NCBI GenBank assembly: GCA_965205975.1
Contig: OZ242195.1
Location: 1,472,001 to 1,536,000 of the forward strand
Length of the DNA: 64,000 bases
Reading direction: 5' to 3'
Source of the DNA: Candidatus Latescibacterota bacterium
GTDB taxonomy: Bacteria > Latescibacterota > UBA2968
Shown one piece after another: positions 46,417-54,433 of the stretch. Position 1 is the first letter of the stretch, and each line of letters starts with the position of its first letter. The notes beneath the pieces were generated by a model. It had not been told where the DNA came from. It saw only the letters and a program-made list of their open reading frames with translations, and did not search any database. The position numbers were made by a program, and so were the translations under genes.

Positions 46417-46644
46417 ATGAGAACTGTTACATCTACTGAATTTCGTCAGCAGGCGACGGCGTATTTAAATGCTGTTGAACAGGGCGAGACATTTCGTATT
46501 TTGCGATATGGCAAGCCTATTGCTGATCTAAAACCAATAGGCACAGCCGTGCCTGCCTGGAAACGGTGTATTGAACCGATCACGCTAAAAGGTATTTCTG
46601 TTTCGGATATGATAATAAAAGAAAGAGATGAGTACGGACGATGA
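46417..46644 (+). CDS. Type II antitoxin, Phd/YefM family
   Basis: MRTVTSTEFRQQATAYLNAVEQGETFRILRYGKPIADL. SD AGGAGG. Confidence 0.9.
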   Translation: MRTVTSTEFRQQATAYLNAVEQGETFRILRYGKPIADLKPIGTAVPAWKRCIEPITLKGISVSDMIIKERDEYGR

Positions 46645-46690
46645 ATGTTTTTTTAGTCACTTTTTACCGCGATCCAATAGGAGGCAAGCG

Positions 46691-47260
46691 ATGGACGTTT
46701 TGGAAGCTATTCACACGCGGCGCACAATTTTTAAGTTCAAACCGGGCGGTGTGCCCAAAGATGTGATTGAAAAAATTTTTGAAGCCGGTCTTTGGGCACC
46801 CAATCACCATTTGACAGAACCGTGGCGATTTGTAGTCCTGGGAGAAGAGACCAAAGAAATACTGGCGCAACGCTACAGCGAAATTCAGGAGGAAAAAGCC
46901 GCCGAAAATGCCAGCGATGAAGCCAGGCGAATATTAAAAGAAGCCGGTTATGCCAAGTTCATGTCAAAGCCCACAATTATTGCAGTGGCGTGTTTGCAAG
47001 ATGGTGATGATATCAAAAATCGGGAAGATTATGCAGCCTCGTGTTGCGCCATGCAAAATATTCAGTTGGCTGCCTGGGCAGAAGGGGTTGGCATGCAGTG
47101 GAGCACGGGGCCGATCACGCTGGAAGAAAACACCTACAAATTGCTGGGTGTAGATACCGGGAACGAATATATCATCGGATTTTTCTATACTGGATATCCC
47201 GATGAAATTCCAGAACCGAGGCGCAAGCCCCTCGAAGAAGTACTGAGCTGGACGGATTGA
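46691..47260 (+). CDS. Nitroreductase family protein (YdjA-like)
   Basis: AIHTRRTI, WAPNHHLTEPWRF, AMQNIQLAAWAEGVG..WSTG. SD AGGAGG before ATG 46691. Confidence 0.9.
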   Translation: MDVLEAIHTRRTIFKFKPGGVPKDVIEKIFEAGLWAPNHHLTEPWRFVVLGEETKEILAQRYSEIQEEKAAENASDEARRILKEAGYAKFMSKPTIIAVACLQDGDDIKNREDYAASCCAMQNIQLAAWAEGVGMQWSTGPITLEENTYKLLGVDTGNEYIIGFFYTGYPDEIPEPRRKPLEEVLSWTD

Positions 47261-47271
47261 TTCCGCTAACC

Positions 47272-48090
47272 ATGAATGGCTTTGAATTTTTTATCCTCTA
47301 TCGCCTGCCCTATTTTGCATTGCCTTTCTATCTTATCATGCTTGGCGTGCGAATATGGGTGTGGATGCGGTTTTACAACCCCGCGCTCAAGCTATTGCCA
47401 CGCGCCAGAGGATCTGTATATGGCGTGTGGAAGCAGCAGTACCGCCCAACCATTCACATTTTTCCCGGATCGCGCTCACAAAGGACAGAATGGAAACGCG
47501 CTATAAAGGGCTTTGTTTTTTTTACTGGTCTCTACAAGCGTGACAAAGTGCTGTGGATGGGTTCCTGGTCCCTCCATTTGGGGCTGCTCCTGGTAATTGT
47601 TGCCCATGCCCGCGTGATTTTACCGCTTGACCTAGATCTGATCTGTTTGCGCGTCGCATTGATCGGCAGTGGACTGATGACAGTGTCGGGCACTTATTTG
47701 TTGCTGCGTCGCATAATCATTCAACGCGTGCGGGAAATTACGGACTTTCGGGACTATCTGGCGGAATTCATCCTCCTGTTTTTTTCTTTAACAGCATTTC
47801 TCGTGATGTTAGACGGTGGCGTGTCATCCGAAGCCCTGCGCCACTATGTATCTGGGCTGTTGATGAACACAGTGGAAGTTATTGAAGTGCCACACATTTT
47901 TGTCTGGCACATGCTCGCCGCCCAGCTATTATTGATTGTGATCCCATTTTCCCATCTGTTGCATCTGGGCGGGATTTTTTTCAGTCGCGAATTTCTGGGC
48001 ACGTCCGATACATTTGCTGGAGAATTTGGATCAGAATTTTCAGGATTAAATGATGAACAGGATGAAAAACCACTAACCACTAACCACTAA
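47272..48090 (+). CDS. NarI/DsrM-like diheme cytochrome b membrane subunit
   Basis: Heme ligand pairs H-x9-H (SLHLGLLLVIVAH) and H-x17-H (WHMLAAQLLLIVIPFSHLLH), plus LLRRI...VREIT..DY. Confidence 0.85.
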   Translation: MNGFEFFILYRLPYFALPFYLIMLGVRIWVWMRFYNPALKLLPRARGSVYGVWKQQYRPTIHIFPGSRSQRTEWKRAIKGFVFFTGLYKRDKVLWMGSWSLHLGLLLVIVAHARVILPLDLDLICLRVALIGSGLMTVSGTYLLLRRIIIQRVREITDFRDYLAEFILLFFSLTAFLVMLDGGVSSEALRHYVSGLLMNTVEVIEVPHIFVWHMLAAQLLLIVIPFSHLLHLGGIFFSREFLGTSDTFAGEFGSEFSGLNDEQDEKPLTTNH

Positions 48091-48091
48091 C
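48031..48091 (+). repeat. Degenerate 9-mer repeats followed by (AACCACT)x3
   Basis: tcagaattt tcaggatta aatgatgaa caggatgaa a aaccact aaccact aaccact aac. Confidence 0.7.
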
Positions 48092-48094
48092 TGC

Positions 48095-49462
48095 TTGAGA
48101 ATCAGAAAATTGGAAAAGCCAGATAAAACAGAACGAGAAAAAAAATACATTCCAACAGGCCTGGCTGGCACGTATATGCGGCGCATTGCCGAATCGGATC
48201 CCTTTGTCCGCGAGATTCAGGACGAACCATCGGCGTTGCGCCTGTACATGGATACGTGTACCAAATGTGGGGTGTGCGCGCAGGAATGCCCGGTGTATTA
48301 CGGGCAACCCGACAAGCGCATGCATCCGGTGGAACGCTCTCGGCAAGTGATTCGTTTATACAAAAAGTACACGACATTTTGGGGACGGTTTTGGAATGCC
48401 ATTTTTCCAAAGCCAGATTTTGAAAATAATGATGCCGAGCTATTTTCCGAGCGCATGTACGAGTGTTTGACGTGTCGGCGGTGTGCGGCATTTTGTCCTG
48501 TGGGAATCGATCATTCGGTGATCTCGCGCGTTGGACGCTCGCTTGTCGATTTAATGGGTTTGACGCCGCCGTCCCTTGCACAGGGTACGCACAATTCGTT
48601 TGAAACAGGCAATTTAGAAGGCGCGTCAGCCGAGGCATTTTTAGACGCGATTCAATTTATCGAAGAAGAGCTCAAAGAAGAAACAGGACGGGATATTGCC
48701 ATTCCTTTAGACCGCGAAGGCGCGGAAATTTTCTTTTTGCCGCCGTCGGGTGATGTGCTGGTTTATGCTGAAAACTTAATGGGTATGGCAAAAATTTTTC
48801 ACGCCATCGGTGCCGATTGGACGATGAGCTCGCGGGCATTTGATGGATCGAATTTCGGATTTACGACCGGCAACAACTTCTCAATGAAGTACGAGAACAA
48901 GCACTACATCGACGCATGCGAAAAATTGGGATGTAAGATCATGGTAATGGGTGAATGCGGACATGCGTATCGGGTGATGAAGTTCATGGCCAGCGAAGGA
49001 CGCTGGTGGGGTGCATTGCCTTTTGAGATTACCAGTGGGTTTGAATATACGGCACAACTTATTCGCACGGGCAAACTGAAATTGGACCCGGATAAAAATC
49101 CCGATCCCGTGACCTATCACGACGCTTGCCAATTTGCTGCTGGGTGTGGAATTGTCGAGGAACCCAGAGAGATTTTGAAAGCGGCCTGTGTCGATTACCG
49201 CGAAATGCCCGATGGCGGGTACACACAGTGGTGTTGCGGTGGTGGCGGTGGGTTATCGGCACTGCGCTCGGTGCGCGCGTTTCGGATGGAGGTCTCGGGC
49301 AAAAAGAAAGCAGAGCAAATGCGCGAGACCGATGCGAAGATCGTATCAACTTCGTGTTTGCAGTGCCGCACACAACTCAAAGAAATCGCGCGTCATCACA
49401 AAATGCCACTAGAAATTACAGGTGTACACGAGTTGGTAAACAATGCGATTGTACTGGAATAG
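48095..49462 (+). CDS. DsrK/HdrD-like Fe-S heterodisulfide reductase subunit
   Basis: CTKCGVCAQECP and CLTCRRCAAFCP ferredoxin motifs, GECGHAYR, YHDAC, CCGGGGG, SCLQC (CCG domain). Start uncertain (48095, 48110 or 48176). Confidence 0.88.
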   Translation: MRIRKLEKPDKTEREKKYIPTGLAGTYMRRIAESDPFVREIQDEPSALRLYMDTCTKCGVCAQECPVYYGQPDKRMHPVERSRQVIRLYKKYTTFWGRFWNAIFPKPDFENNDAELFSERMYECLTCRRCAAFCPVGIDHSVISRVGRSLVDLMGLTPPSLAQGTHNSFETGNLEGASAEAFLDAIQFIEEELKEETGRDIAIPLDREGAEIFFLPPSGDVLVYAENLMGMAKIFHAIGADWTMSSRAFDGSNFGFTTGNNFSMKYENKHYIDACEKLGCKIMVMGECGHAYRVMKFMASEGRWWGALPFEITSGFEYTAQLIRTGKLKLDPDKNPDPVTYHDACQFAAGCGIVEEPREILKAACVDYREMPDGGYTQWCCGGGGGLSALRSVRAFRMEVSGKKKAEQMRETDAKIVSTSCLQCRTQLKEIARHHKMPLEITGVHELVNNAIVLE

Positions 49463-49472
49463 CCGATAGCTC

Positions 49473-50666
49473 ATGTCTCATTTAATTTACATGGACAACG
49501 CAGCGACGACATTTCCAAAGCCCCCCAATGTGCTGGAAGACGCGCTGGCGTTCTATCGAAAATACGGGGTAAACCCCGGGCGCAGTGGCACGGATCTGGC
49601 GCGAGAGGCCGAGGATATGGTTGCCGAGACGCGGGCATCGCTCGCTTCGTTTTTTGGTGCCACGGGCAGTCCAGATCGGCTTGTGTTTACACACAATGCC
49701 TCGGATGCGTTGAATATTGCTATTCAGGGCACATTGAAACCCGGCGATCACGTAATTACAACCTGTCTGGATCACAATTCGGTTTTGCGTCCGATTTACC
49801 ATCTCTCAAAATACGAGGGAATTGAGGCGACTTATGTAGGCTTTGGAGTAGATGGCTTTATCGACCCCGAAGATGTTGTCAGAGCGATCAAACCCAATAC
49901 AAAACTCGTAGTAATGACCCATGCATCCAATGTACTGGGCACTGTGCAACCCGTAGCAGCAGTCGGTGCAATCTGCCGCGCACGCGGTGTAATTTTCTGC
50001 GTTGATGTGGCGCAAACAGCGGGTATGTTGCCCATTGATATGGAGGCGATGCAGGCCGATATCCTGTGTTTTACCGGACACAAGTCACTCATGGGGCCAA
50101 CGGGTACCGGTGGGATGTACGTGCGCGAAGGCGTGACAATTGCACCGTTGCGATACGGTGGAACGGGTGTGCGATCAGAGTATCCCGATCACCTAAGCGA
50201 GTATCCCTGGCGATTGGAGTGTGGCACGGGCAATCTGATGGGCATTGCAGGGCTGTTGCACGCGCAAAAATGGATGCGCCGCGAAGGCGTGGAAAATATT
50301 CAGGCACGCGAGATGGCTTTGTTCAAACAACTGGTCAATGGCCTGCGCGAAGTCGATGGAACCATTTTGTATTGCGCTGAAAATCACGATCAACACGTGC
50401 CCGTATTGTCGGCCAATATCGAAGGGATGACAGCGAATAATGTGGGTACATTGCTGGATGTGAAGTTCAATGTGGCAACACGCACGGGATTGCAATGCGC
50501 GCCAAAGGTACATGAAATCCTGGGTACGAAAGCGATGAAGGGTACGGTGCGACTCTCACTAGGCCCCTTCAATACCGAAGCGCAGATAGAAACTGTGATT
50601 GAGGGCTTGAGCGATATTTCCCAACGGCACGGACGAATAAAAGGTCAGGTGCGGAATGGCGTATGA
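49473..50666 (+). CDS. Cysteine desulfurase family protein (class V PLP enzyme, group II type)
   Basis: YMDNAATT, DHNSVLRP, THASNVLG, PLP lysine FTGHKSL, catalytic RTGLQCAP. Confidence 0.92.
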   Translation: MSHLIYMDNAATTFPKPPNVLEDALAFYRKYGVNPGRSGTDLAREAEDMVAETRASLASFFGATGSPDRLVFTHNASDALNIAIQGTLKPGDHVITTCLDHNSVLRPIYHLSKYEGIEATYVGFGVDGFIDPEDVVRAIKPNTKLVVMTHASNVLGTVQPVAAVGAICRARGVIFCVDVAQTAGMLPIDMEAMQADILCFTGHKSLMGPTGTGGMYVREGVTIAPLRYGGTGVRSEYPDHLSEYPWRLECGTGNLMGIAGLLHAQKWMRREGVENIQAREMALFKQLVNGLREVDGTILYCAENHDQHVPVLSANIEGMTANNVGTLLDVKFNVATRTGLQCAPKVHEILGTKAMKGTVRLSLGPFNTEAQIETVIEGLSDISQRHGRIKGQVRNGV

Positions 50667-50979
50667 AATTGTGACGCTGGGAGATAAAGAAATTGAGGTA
50701 GATGAAGATGGGTTTATCCAACAGCCCGAGCTTTGGGACGAAGATGTAGCGCGTGATCTGGCCCGGCAAGATGGCATTGAGGAGATGACCAAAGATCACT
50801 GGCAGGTCGTGTATTATATCCGCAATTATTGGTTGAAATTTGAAATCGCTCCATTGATCCGCCGCTTGTGCAAAGAGACAGAAAAAGATATCGATACGAT
50901 TTACGACCTGTTTTCCGCTGGTCCCGCAGATGGCGCGTGTAAAATCGCAGGTTTGCCAACGCCTACGGGGTGTACGTGA
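50656..50979 (+). CDS. dsrC: DsrC/TusE family sulfur relay protein with both C-terminal cysteines
   Basis: VDEDGFI..PELW, HWQVVYYIRNY, IYDLFSAGPADGACKIAGLPTPTGC (C-x10-C). Confidence 0.88.
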   Translation: MAYEIVTLGDKEIEVDEDGFIQQPELWDEDVARDLARQDGIEEMTKDHWQVVYYIRNYWLKFEIAPLIRRLCKETEKDIDTIYDLFSAGPADGACKIAGLPTPTGCT

Positions 50980-52869: not shown

Positions 52870-53700
52870 TCAGTTAATAAATAACGGCTGATCGGATCGC
52901 GGTACAATGCCCGCTTCTTCTGCACGCGCAAAAAGATCGACCAGTGCAGCCTCGCCATCTGCGCCGTAATCCAACGTGTATTCATTGACGTAGAGATCGA
53001 TGTGCTGCTGCATAACAGCTTCGTCCATCTCCTGTGCGTGCTCGCGGATGTAATTTTTAACTGCATCCGGGTTTTCATGTGCATATTCCACACTGGCGCA
53101 AAGAGATACATCAATTTGTTGAATCATTTCTTTGCCGAGATCACGTCGGGCGAGAATACCGCCGAGCGGAATGGGATGTCCCGTAGATGCCTCCCACCAT
53201 TCGCCCAGGTCAATGACTTTGTGCAGACCATAATCGGGATAGGTAAATCGCGATTCGTGGATAATCACGCCGGCATCAACATCGCCTTTTTGCGTGGCCT
53301 CCATAATCTCGTCAAAAGGCATTGCAACGAGATTGTCAAGTGCAGGATTAAAGAGACGCAGCAAGAGCGCGGCCGTGGTGAGTTCGCCGGGAATGGCAAT
53401 GCGTTTGCCCAACAAAGCGCTTGGATCAAGGGCATCAGACGCGATAACGAGCGGTCCACACCCACGCCCCAATGCCCCCCCCGAATGCAACAGACAATAG
53501 CGATCTCGCATAAATGCAAGCGCGTGGAATGATATCTTGGTCATATCCAATTTACCAGCCATAGCCATGCGATTCAGCGTCTCGATATCTTCGAGAATCT
53601 CGCGGCATCTGGGCGCGCCGTCAATTTTTCCGTGAACCAGACCGTAGAAAATATATGTGTCATTGGGACACGGGGAATAACCAAGAGAAATACGGGACAT
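52870..53700 (-). CDS. mqnD: 1,4-dihydroxy-6-naphthoate synthase
   Basis: LGYSPCPNDTYIF, GGALGRGCGP, IIHESRFTY, DLGEWWE, HIDLYVN. Confidence 0.95.
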   Translation of the reverse strand: MSRISLGYSPCPNDTYIFYGLVHGKIDGAPRCREILEDIETLNRMAMAGKLDMTKISFHALAFMRDRYCLLHSGGALGRGCGPLVIASDALDPSALLGKRIAIPGELTTAALLLRLFNPALDNLVAMPFDEIMEATQKGDVDAGVIIHESRFTYPDYGLHKVIDLGEWWEASTGHPIPLGGILARRDLGKEMIQQIDVSLCASVEYAHENPDAVKNYIREHAQEMDEAVMQQHIDLYVNEYTLDYGADGEAALVDLFARAEEAGIVPRSDQPLFIN

Positions 53701-53713
53701 GATGAACCTCGCG

Positions 53714-54433
53714 TCATAGAGCCTCAACGAATTTTTGCGCTGCAATTTGCACACGATGGACAGATTGGGGAATATCCCAGGTGTCTTTGTTGCGGTCTTC
53801 TACAAGATTACTAATAGCGCGTAATTCGAGAAATGGAACCGCGTAAAGGGTGCAGACATGTGCCGCAGCCGCACCCTCCATGTTTTCACATATCGCATTG
53901 AAACGCGCTGCCAGTTCATTGCCAATATCCTCGCGCCCTGTACATTGTTGCACCGTAACAAAAGGACCTTGCACAACACATTCGCCCGATTGTTCGAGTA
54001 TGTGCTGCGCCCTGGCGACAAGCGCGGGATCGAGAGAATACGTATTGTAATAATCGCGATCTGTTGACAGGACGGGAATACCGATCTCATCAGCAGGAGA
54101 CCAGCCAGCAGGTGTGATGACGCCTAAATCGCCATAATTTTCTTCGGTCGCAAGTGCGAGATCGCCCTTATCCAGGCCACTGCCGAGATAAGCACCGCCT
54201 ATGCCGATTTGCAGAACGAGTTCGGGATCAATTTCCTGGAGTGCAACAGTGAGCGCCTGCGCCGTATTGACCGCCCCAATACCCGTTTCAACAAGGACTA
54301 CGGGGCTGATGCCAATCATACCACAAACCCAGACGCGATGTCCCAGGCGCTGTGTTGTCGCCTGTTGAAGACTATCGCGCAAACGCTGTTGCTCATAAGC
54401 CGTGGCTGTCAGGATAAGCAGAGGATCGGGCAT
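53714..54433 (-). CDS. mqnB: Futalosine hydrolase
   Basis: TGIGAVN, GIGGAY, YGDLG, ENMEGAAAAHVC, ELRAISNLVEDR. Adjacent to mqnD. Confidence 0.92.
   Translation of the reverse strand: MPDPLLILTATAYEQQRLRDSLQQATTQRLGHRVWVCGMIGISPVVLVETGIGAVNTAQALTVALQEIDPELVLQIGIGGAYLGSGLDKGDLALATEENYGDLGVITPAGWSPADEIGIPVLSTDRDYYNTYSLDPALVARAQHILEQSGECVVQGPFVTVQQCTGREDIGNELAARFNAICENMEGAAAAHVCTLYAVPFLELRAISNLVEDRNKDTWDIPQSVHRVQIAAQKFVEAL

Follow-up and report, generated by a model that had tools for sequence, protein, structure and literature searches.

An operon of DsrMK paralogs, a cysteine desulfurase and a two-cysteine DsrC in a Candidatus Latescibacterota genome without dsrAB: a candidate cysteine-sulfur relay

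The window analysed here is a 64-kb stretch (positions 1472001–1536000) of a one-contig Candidatus Latescibacterota genome (5,559,252 bases, 98.31% complete), and it contains an operon in which a membrane cytochrome b of the NarI/DsrM family (M), a DsrK-paralog iron-sulfur (Fe-S) protein (K), a class-V pyridoxal phosphate (PLP) cysteine desulfurase and a two-cysteine DsrC are encoded in succession. The operon is real, conserved and recurrent, and it falls outside the Dsr pathway; most likely it works like DsrC with DsrMK, the cysteine desulfurase being the putative sulfur donor. That the four proteins form one DsrAB-independent relay, which would convert cysteine and menaquinol to alanine, H2S and menaquinone, is a reading to which we give about an even chance. 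The genes in question are the following.

46691–47260, + strand: nitroreductase-family gene (PF00881)
47257–48090, + strand: M, NarI/DsrM-family membrane cytochrome b, 277 amino acids (PF02665)
48095–49462, + strand: K, DsrK-paralog Fe-S protein, 455 amino acids (Fer4_8 and one CCG domain)
49473–50666, + strand: class-V PLP cysteine desulfurase, 397 amino acids (PF00266, TIGR01977)
50656–50979, + strand: two-cysteine DsrC, 107 amino acids (PF04358, TIGR03342)

The five open reading frames follow each other on the same strand with intergenic gaps of at most 10 bases, or with overlaps: the TTG start of M overlaps the stop codon of the nitroreductase gene, K begins 4 bases past the stop of M, the desulfurase 10 bases past that of K, and the start of DsrC overlaps the end of the desulfurase by 11 bases. 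Reading-frame coordinates and family profiles agree on the tightly packed operon of named families that had been put forward in the original prediction, made from the letters of the window. The nitroreductase, which was listed there among the tightly packed genes, does not belong to the core of the operon: it is coupled to M in the host genus, drifts away from it in distant family members, with other genes intervening in loci L021, L022, L027 and L028, was not found upstream of M in L020, and has no match in the loci of the two other lineages (Acidobacteria and a third lineage) discussed below. A scan for promoters and terminators gave counts not above chance (3 vs 5.5 and 8 vs 5.7). Among the matches from sequencing runs, 18 RNA rows all had small shares (0.05–0.18). 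Contigs from RNA libraries (four runs of four studies) span the operon genes, and every gene junction is bridged by single contigs; since these are mostly 85–95% alike, and thus come from relatives, extend over the flanking genes and may include DNA, they do not demonstrate transcription or a single transcript.

The absence of dsrA and dsrB, originally noted for the window, holds for the whole genome by profile and tblastn searches. The sole NIR_SIR protein is an assimilatory-type reductase of 742 amino acids, and it is on this protein that the best dsrA and dsrB matches fall (32.7 bits with a cut-off of 392.85, and 37.5 bits with a cut-off of 341.5, respectively). A hidden dsrAB was discarded, no match to one being obtained with PF01077, TIGR02064, TIGR02066 or tblastn of DsrA and DsrB from other loci, and the dsrA cut-off is reached in none of the 41 genomes formed by the host and 40 relatives. 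The absence of dsrJOP stands for the operon, which has none, and, as far as the probes go, for the genome, where the DsrP probe gave no match and the DsrO probe and the single NrfD match lead only to alternative complex III, no dedicated DsrJ probe having been run. A DsrL probe from other loci matched only glutamate synthase in the host genome. As to the Tus proteins, it remains true genome-wide that there is no three-gene TusBCD/DsrEFH set; the genome does encode MnmA, one TusA and one DsrE-family protein elsewhere. A TusA and a DsrE-family gene lie at 3660882–3663010 of the contig, together with that of a 499-amino-acid protein with an N-terminal TusA-like domain, whose second domain looks, by eye, MetE-type.

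By their sequences, M and K are to be classed as DsrMK paralogs, and not as canonical DsrMK. M carries His107, His117, His218 and His236, which match the four conserved histidines of DsrM homologs (alignment with 29 homologs) and through which it is predicted to ligate the hemes. Its score against the DsrM model NF038037 is 42.9 bits, below the cut-off of 300, and in the alignment it lacks the helix-3 loop typical of DsrMKJOP-type DsrM, a feature that, by a recent preprint (10.64898/2026.08.25.746951), suggests an open quinol site; compared with the criteria for the open-quinol-site DsrM-1, there is no arginine before His117, yet Arg119 is retained. K has two [4Fe-4S] motifs (C55/58/61/65 and C124/127/130/134), a single five-cysteine CCG site (C345, C380, C381, C421 and C424) and the pair Cys288/His290, equivalent to the relay cysteine and histidine (Cys329/His331) highlighted in the Archaeoglobus fulgidus DsrK structure (preprint, section 7). 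It scores 314.7 bits against the DsrK model NF045796, below the cut-off of 400, which 13 of the 46 scanned K homologs exceed (468–732 bits). Cys424 stands at the position taken from the motif as the equivalent of Asp500 in DsrMKJOP-type K; a cysteine is found there also in several K proteins with scores above the DsrK cut-off, so this difference does not discriminate function. In two FastTree phylogenies, one with 69 and one with 73 K-like proteins (hand-picked from 159 extracted, with module sequences added; midpoint root, deep nodes weak), the canonical DsrK clade (support 0.999) leaves out the host K, which joins a paralog clade (0.98–0.987). Thus the DsrM- and DsrK-type identity proposed at the outset is borne out by residues and motifs, and that of canonical DsrMK is not, both proteins falling below the NCBIfam cut-offs and K outside the DsrK clade. 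A structure model of K (mean predicted local distance difference test, pLDDT, 87.6) gave Foldseek matches to EtfD, LutA and HdrB only, and no DsrK or DsrM entry was matched in a sequence search of the PDB.

The members of the paralog clade are about 40–53% identical to the host K and come from many phyla (Desulfobacterota, Planctomycetota, Gemmatimonadota, Myxococcota, Zixibacteria and other Latescibacterota). The dsrA cut-off is passed in 24 of the 25 genomes with those paralogs, the 25th having a DsrB-like match, and a desulfurase of this type adjoins K in just one of the 30 paralog loci. In this locus (L102, 7351–12522, from a Syntrophobacter sp. with dsrAB), Rrf2, M, K and the desulfurase are found with no adjacent DsrC, an arrangement that is possibly an intermediate. 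In dsrAB-positive Planctomycetota, Gemmatimonadota, Myxococcota, Zixibacteria and others (L075–L095), a sister K paralog lies within a cassette of its own (e.g. L091, 7891–12127; L085, 7758–12514), which comprises an excisionase-type helix-turn-helix regulator, a DsrC with the last cysteine only, M, K and sometimes Rrf2, and which often adds a tandem DsrC-DsrC protein with the first cysteine kept and the last one lost.

DsrC, in turn, ends with Cys95-x10-Cys106, as the original prediction stated, and so do 118 of 120 homologs among the matches listed. It scores 110 bits against TIGR03342 (cut-off 53.5) and 72.5 bits, below the cut-off of 191, against the TusE model NF008562, and its best match among solved structures is 1ji8 (E 7e-31), which we take to be the Pyrobaculum DsrC. 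The C-terminal DsrC motif of DiSCo, in which one difference is permitted (PMC8477390), is matched with one difference, Thr for Lys. Both DsrC and the DsrK-like protein are encoded by single genes in the genome. DsrC is nearest (54–63%) to ordinary two-cysteine DsrC proteins, many of them from dsr clusters and many beside canonical reductive-type DsrK; with an ordinary dsr-cluster DsrC next to paralogous M and K, the operon is a mosaic.

The PLP enzyme is predicted to be a cysteine desulfurase of family TIGR01977 (422.7 bits, above the cut-off of 377), with the PLP lysine at position 204 and the catalytic cysteine at position 342, conserved in all 26 distinct family sequences, and it is the third desulfurase of the genome, beside SufS-like and IscS-like enzymes. 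EF_2568, the prototype of TIGR01977, has selD as a neighbour and has been described as a probable selenocysteine lyase (PMC2276186). Were the host enzyme such a lyase as well, DsrC would carry selenium and M and K would reduce it to selenide for SelD, a reading in keeping with a host selD with in-frame TGA (3425483–3426406 of the contig, a probable selenoprotein SelD) and with selD in seven of the nine Acidobacteria genomes that hold the DsrC-desulfurase pair. We nevertheless regard it as improbable: the enzyme scores 325.3 bits against the selenocysteine lyase (SclA) model NF040779, well below its cut-off of 525, and adjoins DsrC and MK, not selD and YedF as EF_2568 does; the host selD is about 1.9 Mb away from the operon; selD is present in relative G021 and in all five tested sister-family genomes, all without the operon, and none was found in the draft genomes G042 and G250, which have the full module. 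Overall, selD occurs in 26 of 28 genomes tested, operon present or not. An in-frame TGA in the desulfurase gene of G022, considered as a selenocysteine codon, is merely the terminal stop.

The closest relatives of the host are Candidatus Latescibacterota metagenome-assembled genomes, with 86–98% identity in K. In a survey of 40 relatives (24 of the host's own family and 16 of a sister family in the same order), the order M-K-desulfurase-DsrC was found in 21 of the 23 family loci, the contigs of the other two stopping inside K; three further distant K loci have no desulfurase. DsrC and the desulfurase are each present in 22 of the 24 family genomes and K in 23 (the G023 contig breaks in K). No close match to K, the desulfurase or DsrC was obtained in G021, a family genome in one contig and 100% complete, or in any of the 16 sister-family genomes, two of which show a 32% match to the desulfurase only. 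The surveyed genomes are kin, and the pattern reflects roughly a single gain or a small number of losses rather than 40 independent tests. The ratio of nonsynonymous to synonymous substitution rates in five pairwise comparisons is 0.03–0.12 for K, the desulfurase and DsrC and 0.11–0.24 for M, values near those of the neighbours garR and mqnD, and all four genes are under purifying selection. This selection, the joint presence or absence of the genes and the existence of three assemblies with different K clades speak against the set being a relic of a lost dsr pathway, or a chance cluster of genes that do not cooperate; other Latescibacterota do have dsrAB together with a sister K paralog (L085 of genome G053), and the complete pathway may have existed in an ancestor, but we consider this explanation very improbable.

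The linkage with the desulfurase, on which the original prediction turned, is thus conserved in the family, and it recurs in two other lineages. With this linkage, and with no dsrAB in the genome, neither of the two conditions accessible to sequence comparison that would have refuted the prediction has come true. Three of 77 non-family DsrC loci have an adjacent desulfurase, all from Acidobacteriaceae. In a follow-up on 251 genomes of the order of one of them (G042), 22 had DsrC, and 27 stretches from 21 new genomes were read; the full set of Lrp regulator, DsrC, M, K and desulfurase is present in six Acidobacteria genomes (G316, G255, G250, G313, G041 and G042), and in G313 the order desulfurase-M-K-DsrC is that of the host except for the position of the desulfurase. 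A dsrA match was found in only one of the nine Acidobacteria holders, most of which are draft genomes, so that five of the six full-set genomes are without one; G294 has a canonical dsrC-dsrK locus, and its dsrAB may therefore be unassembled. A divergent methionine-gamma-lyase-like gene (475–496 bits, below cut-offs) lies beside the Lrp regulator in four of the nine loci, and these neighbours suggest sulfur-amino-acid catabolism. The third lineage, known from metagenome contigs alone, was collected by searching such contigs with a 21-sequence desulfurase alignment centred on P0303 (Sphingobacteriales, according to NCBI); 80 loci, 68 of them distinct at 95%, were kept of at least 435 confirmed. 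Upstream DNA of 2.8 kb or more is available for 52 of the loci, and 48 of these have two-cysteine DsrC, M, K and desulfurase in this order. None of the 80 loci contains dsrA, dsrB or a nitroreductase, a result that concerns the contigs alone. K is here TmcB/HmcF-like and M is without the same four histidines. Across the three lineages, K is 31–33% identical and falls in separate clades, DsrC is 53–60% and the desulfurase 50–55% identical; the best indication of a joint function of the four proteins is that the set exists in three assemblies, each with a K of a different clade. As a control, 351 genomes were drawn from the phylum of G325 (recorded as Chitinophagales), 62 of them with DsrC, and 39 were tested (38 drawn and G327). 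As all of these had dsrA, the phylum label Bacteroidota was not trusted and the draw served solely as a dsrA-positive control; the stretches were taken from the higher-scoring DsrC places, hence non-randomly. No desulfurase was found within about 6 kb of DsrC in any of the 40 stretches from these 39 genomes. In the third lineage (cassettes such as L362, L369, L374 and L411), a second, longer class-V aminotransferase occurs in 25 of the 80 loci, and some cassettes add an Fnr-like regulator, a one-cysteine DsrC, DsrE2, TusA, MvhD or HdrA.

Cysteine desulfurases yield alanine and an enzyme-bound persulfide. In the relay proposed here, the desulfurase would turn L-cysteine into L-alanine and pass the persulfide from Cys342 to Cys106 of DsrC, which would then dock on K. 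K may take the sulfane sulfur via Cys288 onto its non-cubane [4Fe-4S] cluster or, alternatively, Cys95 of DsrC may expel H2S, with the resulting DsrC disulfide being reduced by K; in both cases two electrons from menaquinol would enter through the two hemes of M. The pathway could serve as a cysteine-catabolic electron sink or as a detoxification route during low-oxygen periods. An in-vitro precedent for the first step is available, in that E. coli IscS and cysteine served to persulfurate Allochromatium vinosum DsrC at its last cysteine (PMC3397948). The trisulfide on DsrC that the original prediction allowed for is not required: by established chemistry the desulfurase delivers a persulfide, which is two electrons away from sulfide, while the DsrAB-made trisulfide is four (PMC3397948, section 7), and the earlier assumption becomes unnecessary.

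Several observations weigh against this relay. Relatives of the desulfurase within its subclade adjoin unrelated genes (L237, L239, L240, L243, L245 and 4 of the 52 third-lineage loci), DsrC and the desulfurase occur without adjacent MK in three Acidobacteria genomes (G043, G294 and G194), the full-set genome G255 also has dsrAB, and the desulfurase of G041 is split in two pieces. The two methionine-gamma-lyase-like genes of the host might offer a means of freeing H2S from cysteine that needs no membrane complex. On the energetic side, the potential of the cysteine/alanine plus sulfide couple is roughly estimated from formation energies at around −100 mV, and the gain would be marginal. Even in sulfate reducers, it is uncertain whether menaquinol (about −70 mV) can favourably reduce the sulfur bound to DsrC (PMC10861901). 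Furthermore, with alternative complex III and a heme-copper oxidase encoded in its genome, the host can respire oxygen, and its quinone pool could accept electrons instead of giving them. Of the two possible directions of electron flow we favour, with about even confidence, the reductive one.

With such a respiratory chain, an oxidative function may be envisaged, in which K oxidizes a DsrC persulfide or dithiol, electrons pass from M to menaquinone, alternative complex III and oxygen, and the sulfur ends as sulfite or thiosulfate. For sulfur oxidizers, DsrMKJOP is modelled as oxidizing persulfurated DsrC (PMC6018796), and the DsrK cluster has been proposed to handle oxygenated sulfur (preprint 10.64898/2026.08.25.746951, section 9). 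However, without DsrAB the two-electron product would be a trisulfide, described as highly stable (PMC10861901), and K would need new chemistry; moreover, the affinity of DsrC to proteins of dsr clusters, many next to canonical reductive-type DsrK, and the Fnr-like and HdrA/MvhD genes near some third-lineage loci, typical of anaerobes, point the other way, which makes an oxidative role distinctly unlikely.

The desulfurase and DsrC might instead supply sulfur for biosynthesis, feeding the sulfido-molybdenum cofactor, Fe-S clusters or thionucleosides, with MK only giving two electrons to convert persulfide to sulfide or to keep DsrC reduced. In four loci of Desulfobacterota/Proteobacteria (L313–L316), which also count against the relay, a related desulfurase is paired with a one-cysteine DsrC behind a Mop-like molybdenum aldehyde oxidoreductase; the host has five large subunits of the xanthine-oxidase family elsewhere in its genome; TusA, DsrE2 and HdrA genes occur in some third-lineage loci; and G043, G194 and G294 have DsrC and the desulfurase without MK. 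Yet no client gene adjoins the set in the host stretch or in any family or Acidobacteria locus that was read, separate SufS-like and IscS-like enzymes are available, and there are relatives with complete genomes that do without the operon, a point against an essential role in tRNA or Fe-S cluster formation. The DsrC proteins that look biosynthetic have one cysteine and those of the module two. We hold biosynthetic supply to be unlikely, though not negligibly so. The L313–L316 set itself, with oxidoreductase, DsrC and TIGR01977-type desulfurase in this order, is a candidate for a dedicated molybdenum-cofactor sulfuration relay.

The favoured DsrAB-independent relay has its nearest counterpart in the DsrC-DsrMK/DsrMKJOP system (PMC10861901; preprint 10.64898/2026.08.25.746951), with which it shares the two-cysteine DsrC, the four-histidine NarI-type cytochrome b and the plan of the Fe-S subunit, which combines a pair of cubane motifs and a single CCG site with the relay cysteine and histidine. 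It differs in the lack of DsrAB and, within the limits of the probes, of DsrJOP, in the divergence of M and K, with Cys424 for Asp500 in the latter, and in having the desulfurase in place of DsrAB as sulfur supplier, which implies a persulfide rather than a trisulfide. The M-K architecture is common also to DsrM2K2 of peatland Acidobacteria (PMC6018796), TmcBC and HmcEF. From the DsrMK paralogs of dsrAB-bearing genomes, whose usual neighbours are one-cysteine and tandem DsrC-like proteins, the host set is distinguished by its partners, a two-cysteine DsrC and the desulfurase. The IscS-TusA-TusBCD-TusE-MnmA relay (PMC3397948) likewise starts from a desulfurase and uses a carrier of the DsrC fold with a persulfide on the last cysteine (as proposed for the host), but TusE has one cysteine, depends on TusA as well as TusBCD and works without a redox partner in the membrane, whereas the host has no TusBCD set and its operon is dispensable in relatives. 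With HdrDE and HdrB, K has in common the five-cysteine CCG site for a non-cubane cluster, a membrane cytochrome b as donor and the fold match to HdrB; it has one CCG site instead of two, and its proposed substrate is a protein instead of CoM-S-S-CoB.

All parts belong to known families, and their combination appears undescribed: no description of the four-gene set emerged from a search of full-text literature, supplements and subscription papers being beyond its scope. DsrABCMK has been described as the minimal Dsr set; the same work, from whose main text the word 'desulfurase' is absent, reports seven bacterial assemblies in which basal DsrMK occurs but DsrAB does not (PMC10504309). The second DsrC cysteine was found to be nearly confined to DsrAB holders (PMC3397948). 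The paralogs dsrM2 and dsrK2 are described with no mention of 'desulfurase' in the accessible text (PMC6018796), and 'dsr' does not occur in the main text of an article on sponge Latescibacterota (PMC12993501).

In the surroundings of the operon, an orphan Phd/YefM antitoxin gene (46417–46690; PF02604, 29.5 bits, just below the cut-off) abuts the nitroreductase gene. In the relative with locus L010, a gene for a 140-amino-acid protein, presumably PIN-like judging by its appearance, lies between the two, so the toxin seems to have been deleted at the host locus. About 2 kb downstream, on the opposite strand, genes of the futalosine route to menaquinone (MqnD-family PF02621 and futalosine hydrolase TIGR03664) occupy 52870–54433; they are similarly placed in most family loci, probably as ordinary synteny, and mqnB and mqnD were excluded as module members on account of their strand.

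DsrC and DsrMK are usually held to be inseparable from DsrAB. If the relay proposed here is true, it would provide a candidate job for a class of DsrMK paralogs and an extra way in which bacteria associated with sponges or living in soil and sediment could form H2S from organic sulfur, and it would call for caution when sulfate reduction is deduced from dsrC or dsrMK; it would also offer a small four-protein system for testing persulfide/disulfide turnover by a single non-cubane cluster. More speculatively, and in our view rather less likely than not, the operon may support a 'cysteine respiration', in which cysteine is the terminal electron acceptor via a DsrC persulfide/disulfide cycle and a quinol-oxidizing MK, a unit put together on three or more occasions from different DsrK paralogs and widespread in bacteria without dsrAB. 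Should that be the case, it would represent an unrecognized microbial source of H2S, and DsrC and MK would be seen to work apart from sulfite reduction.

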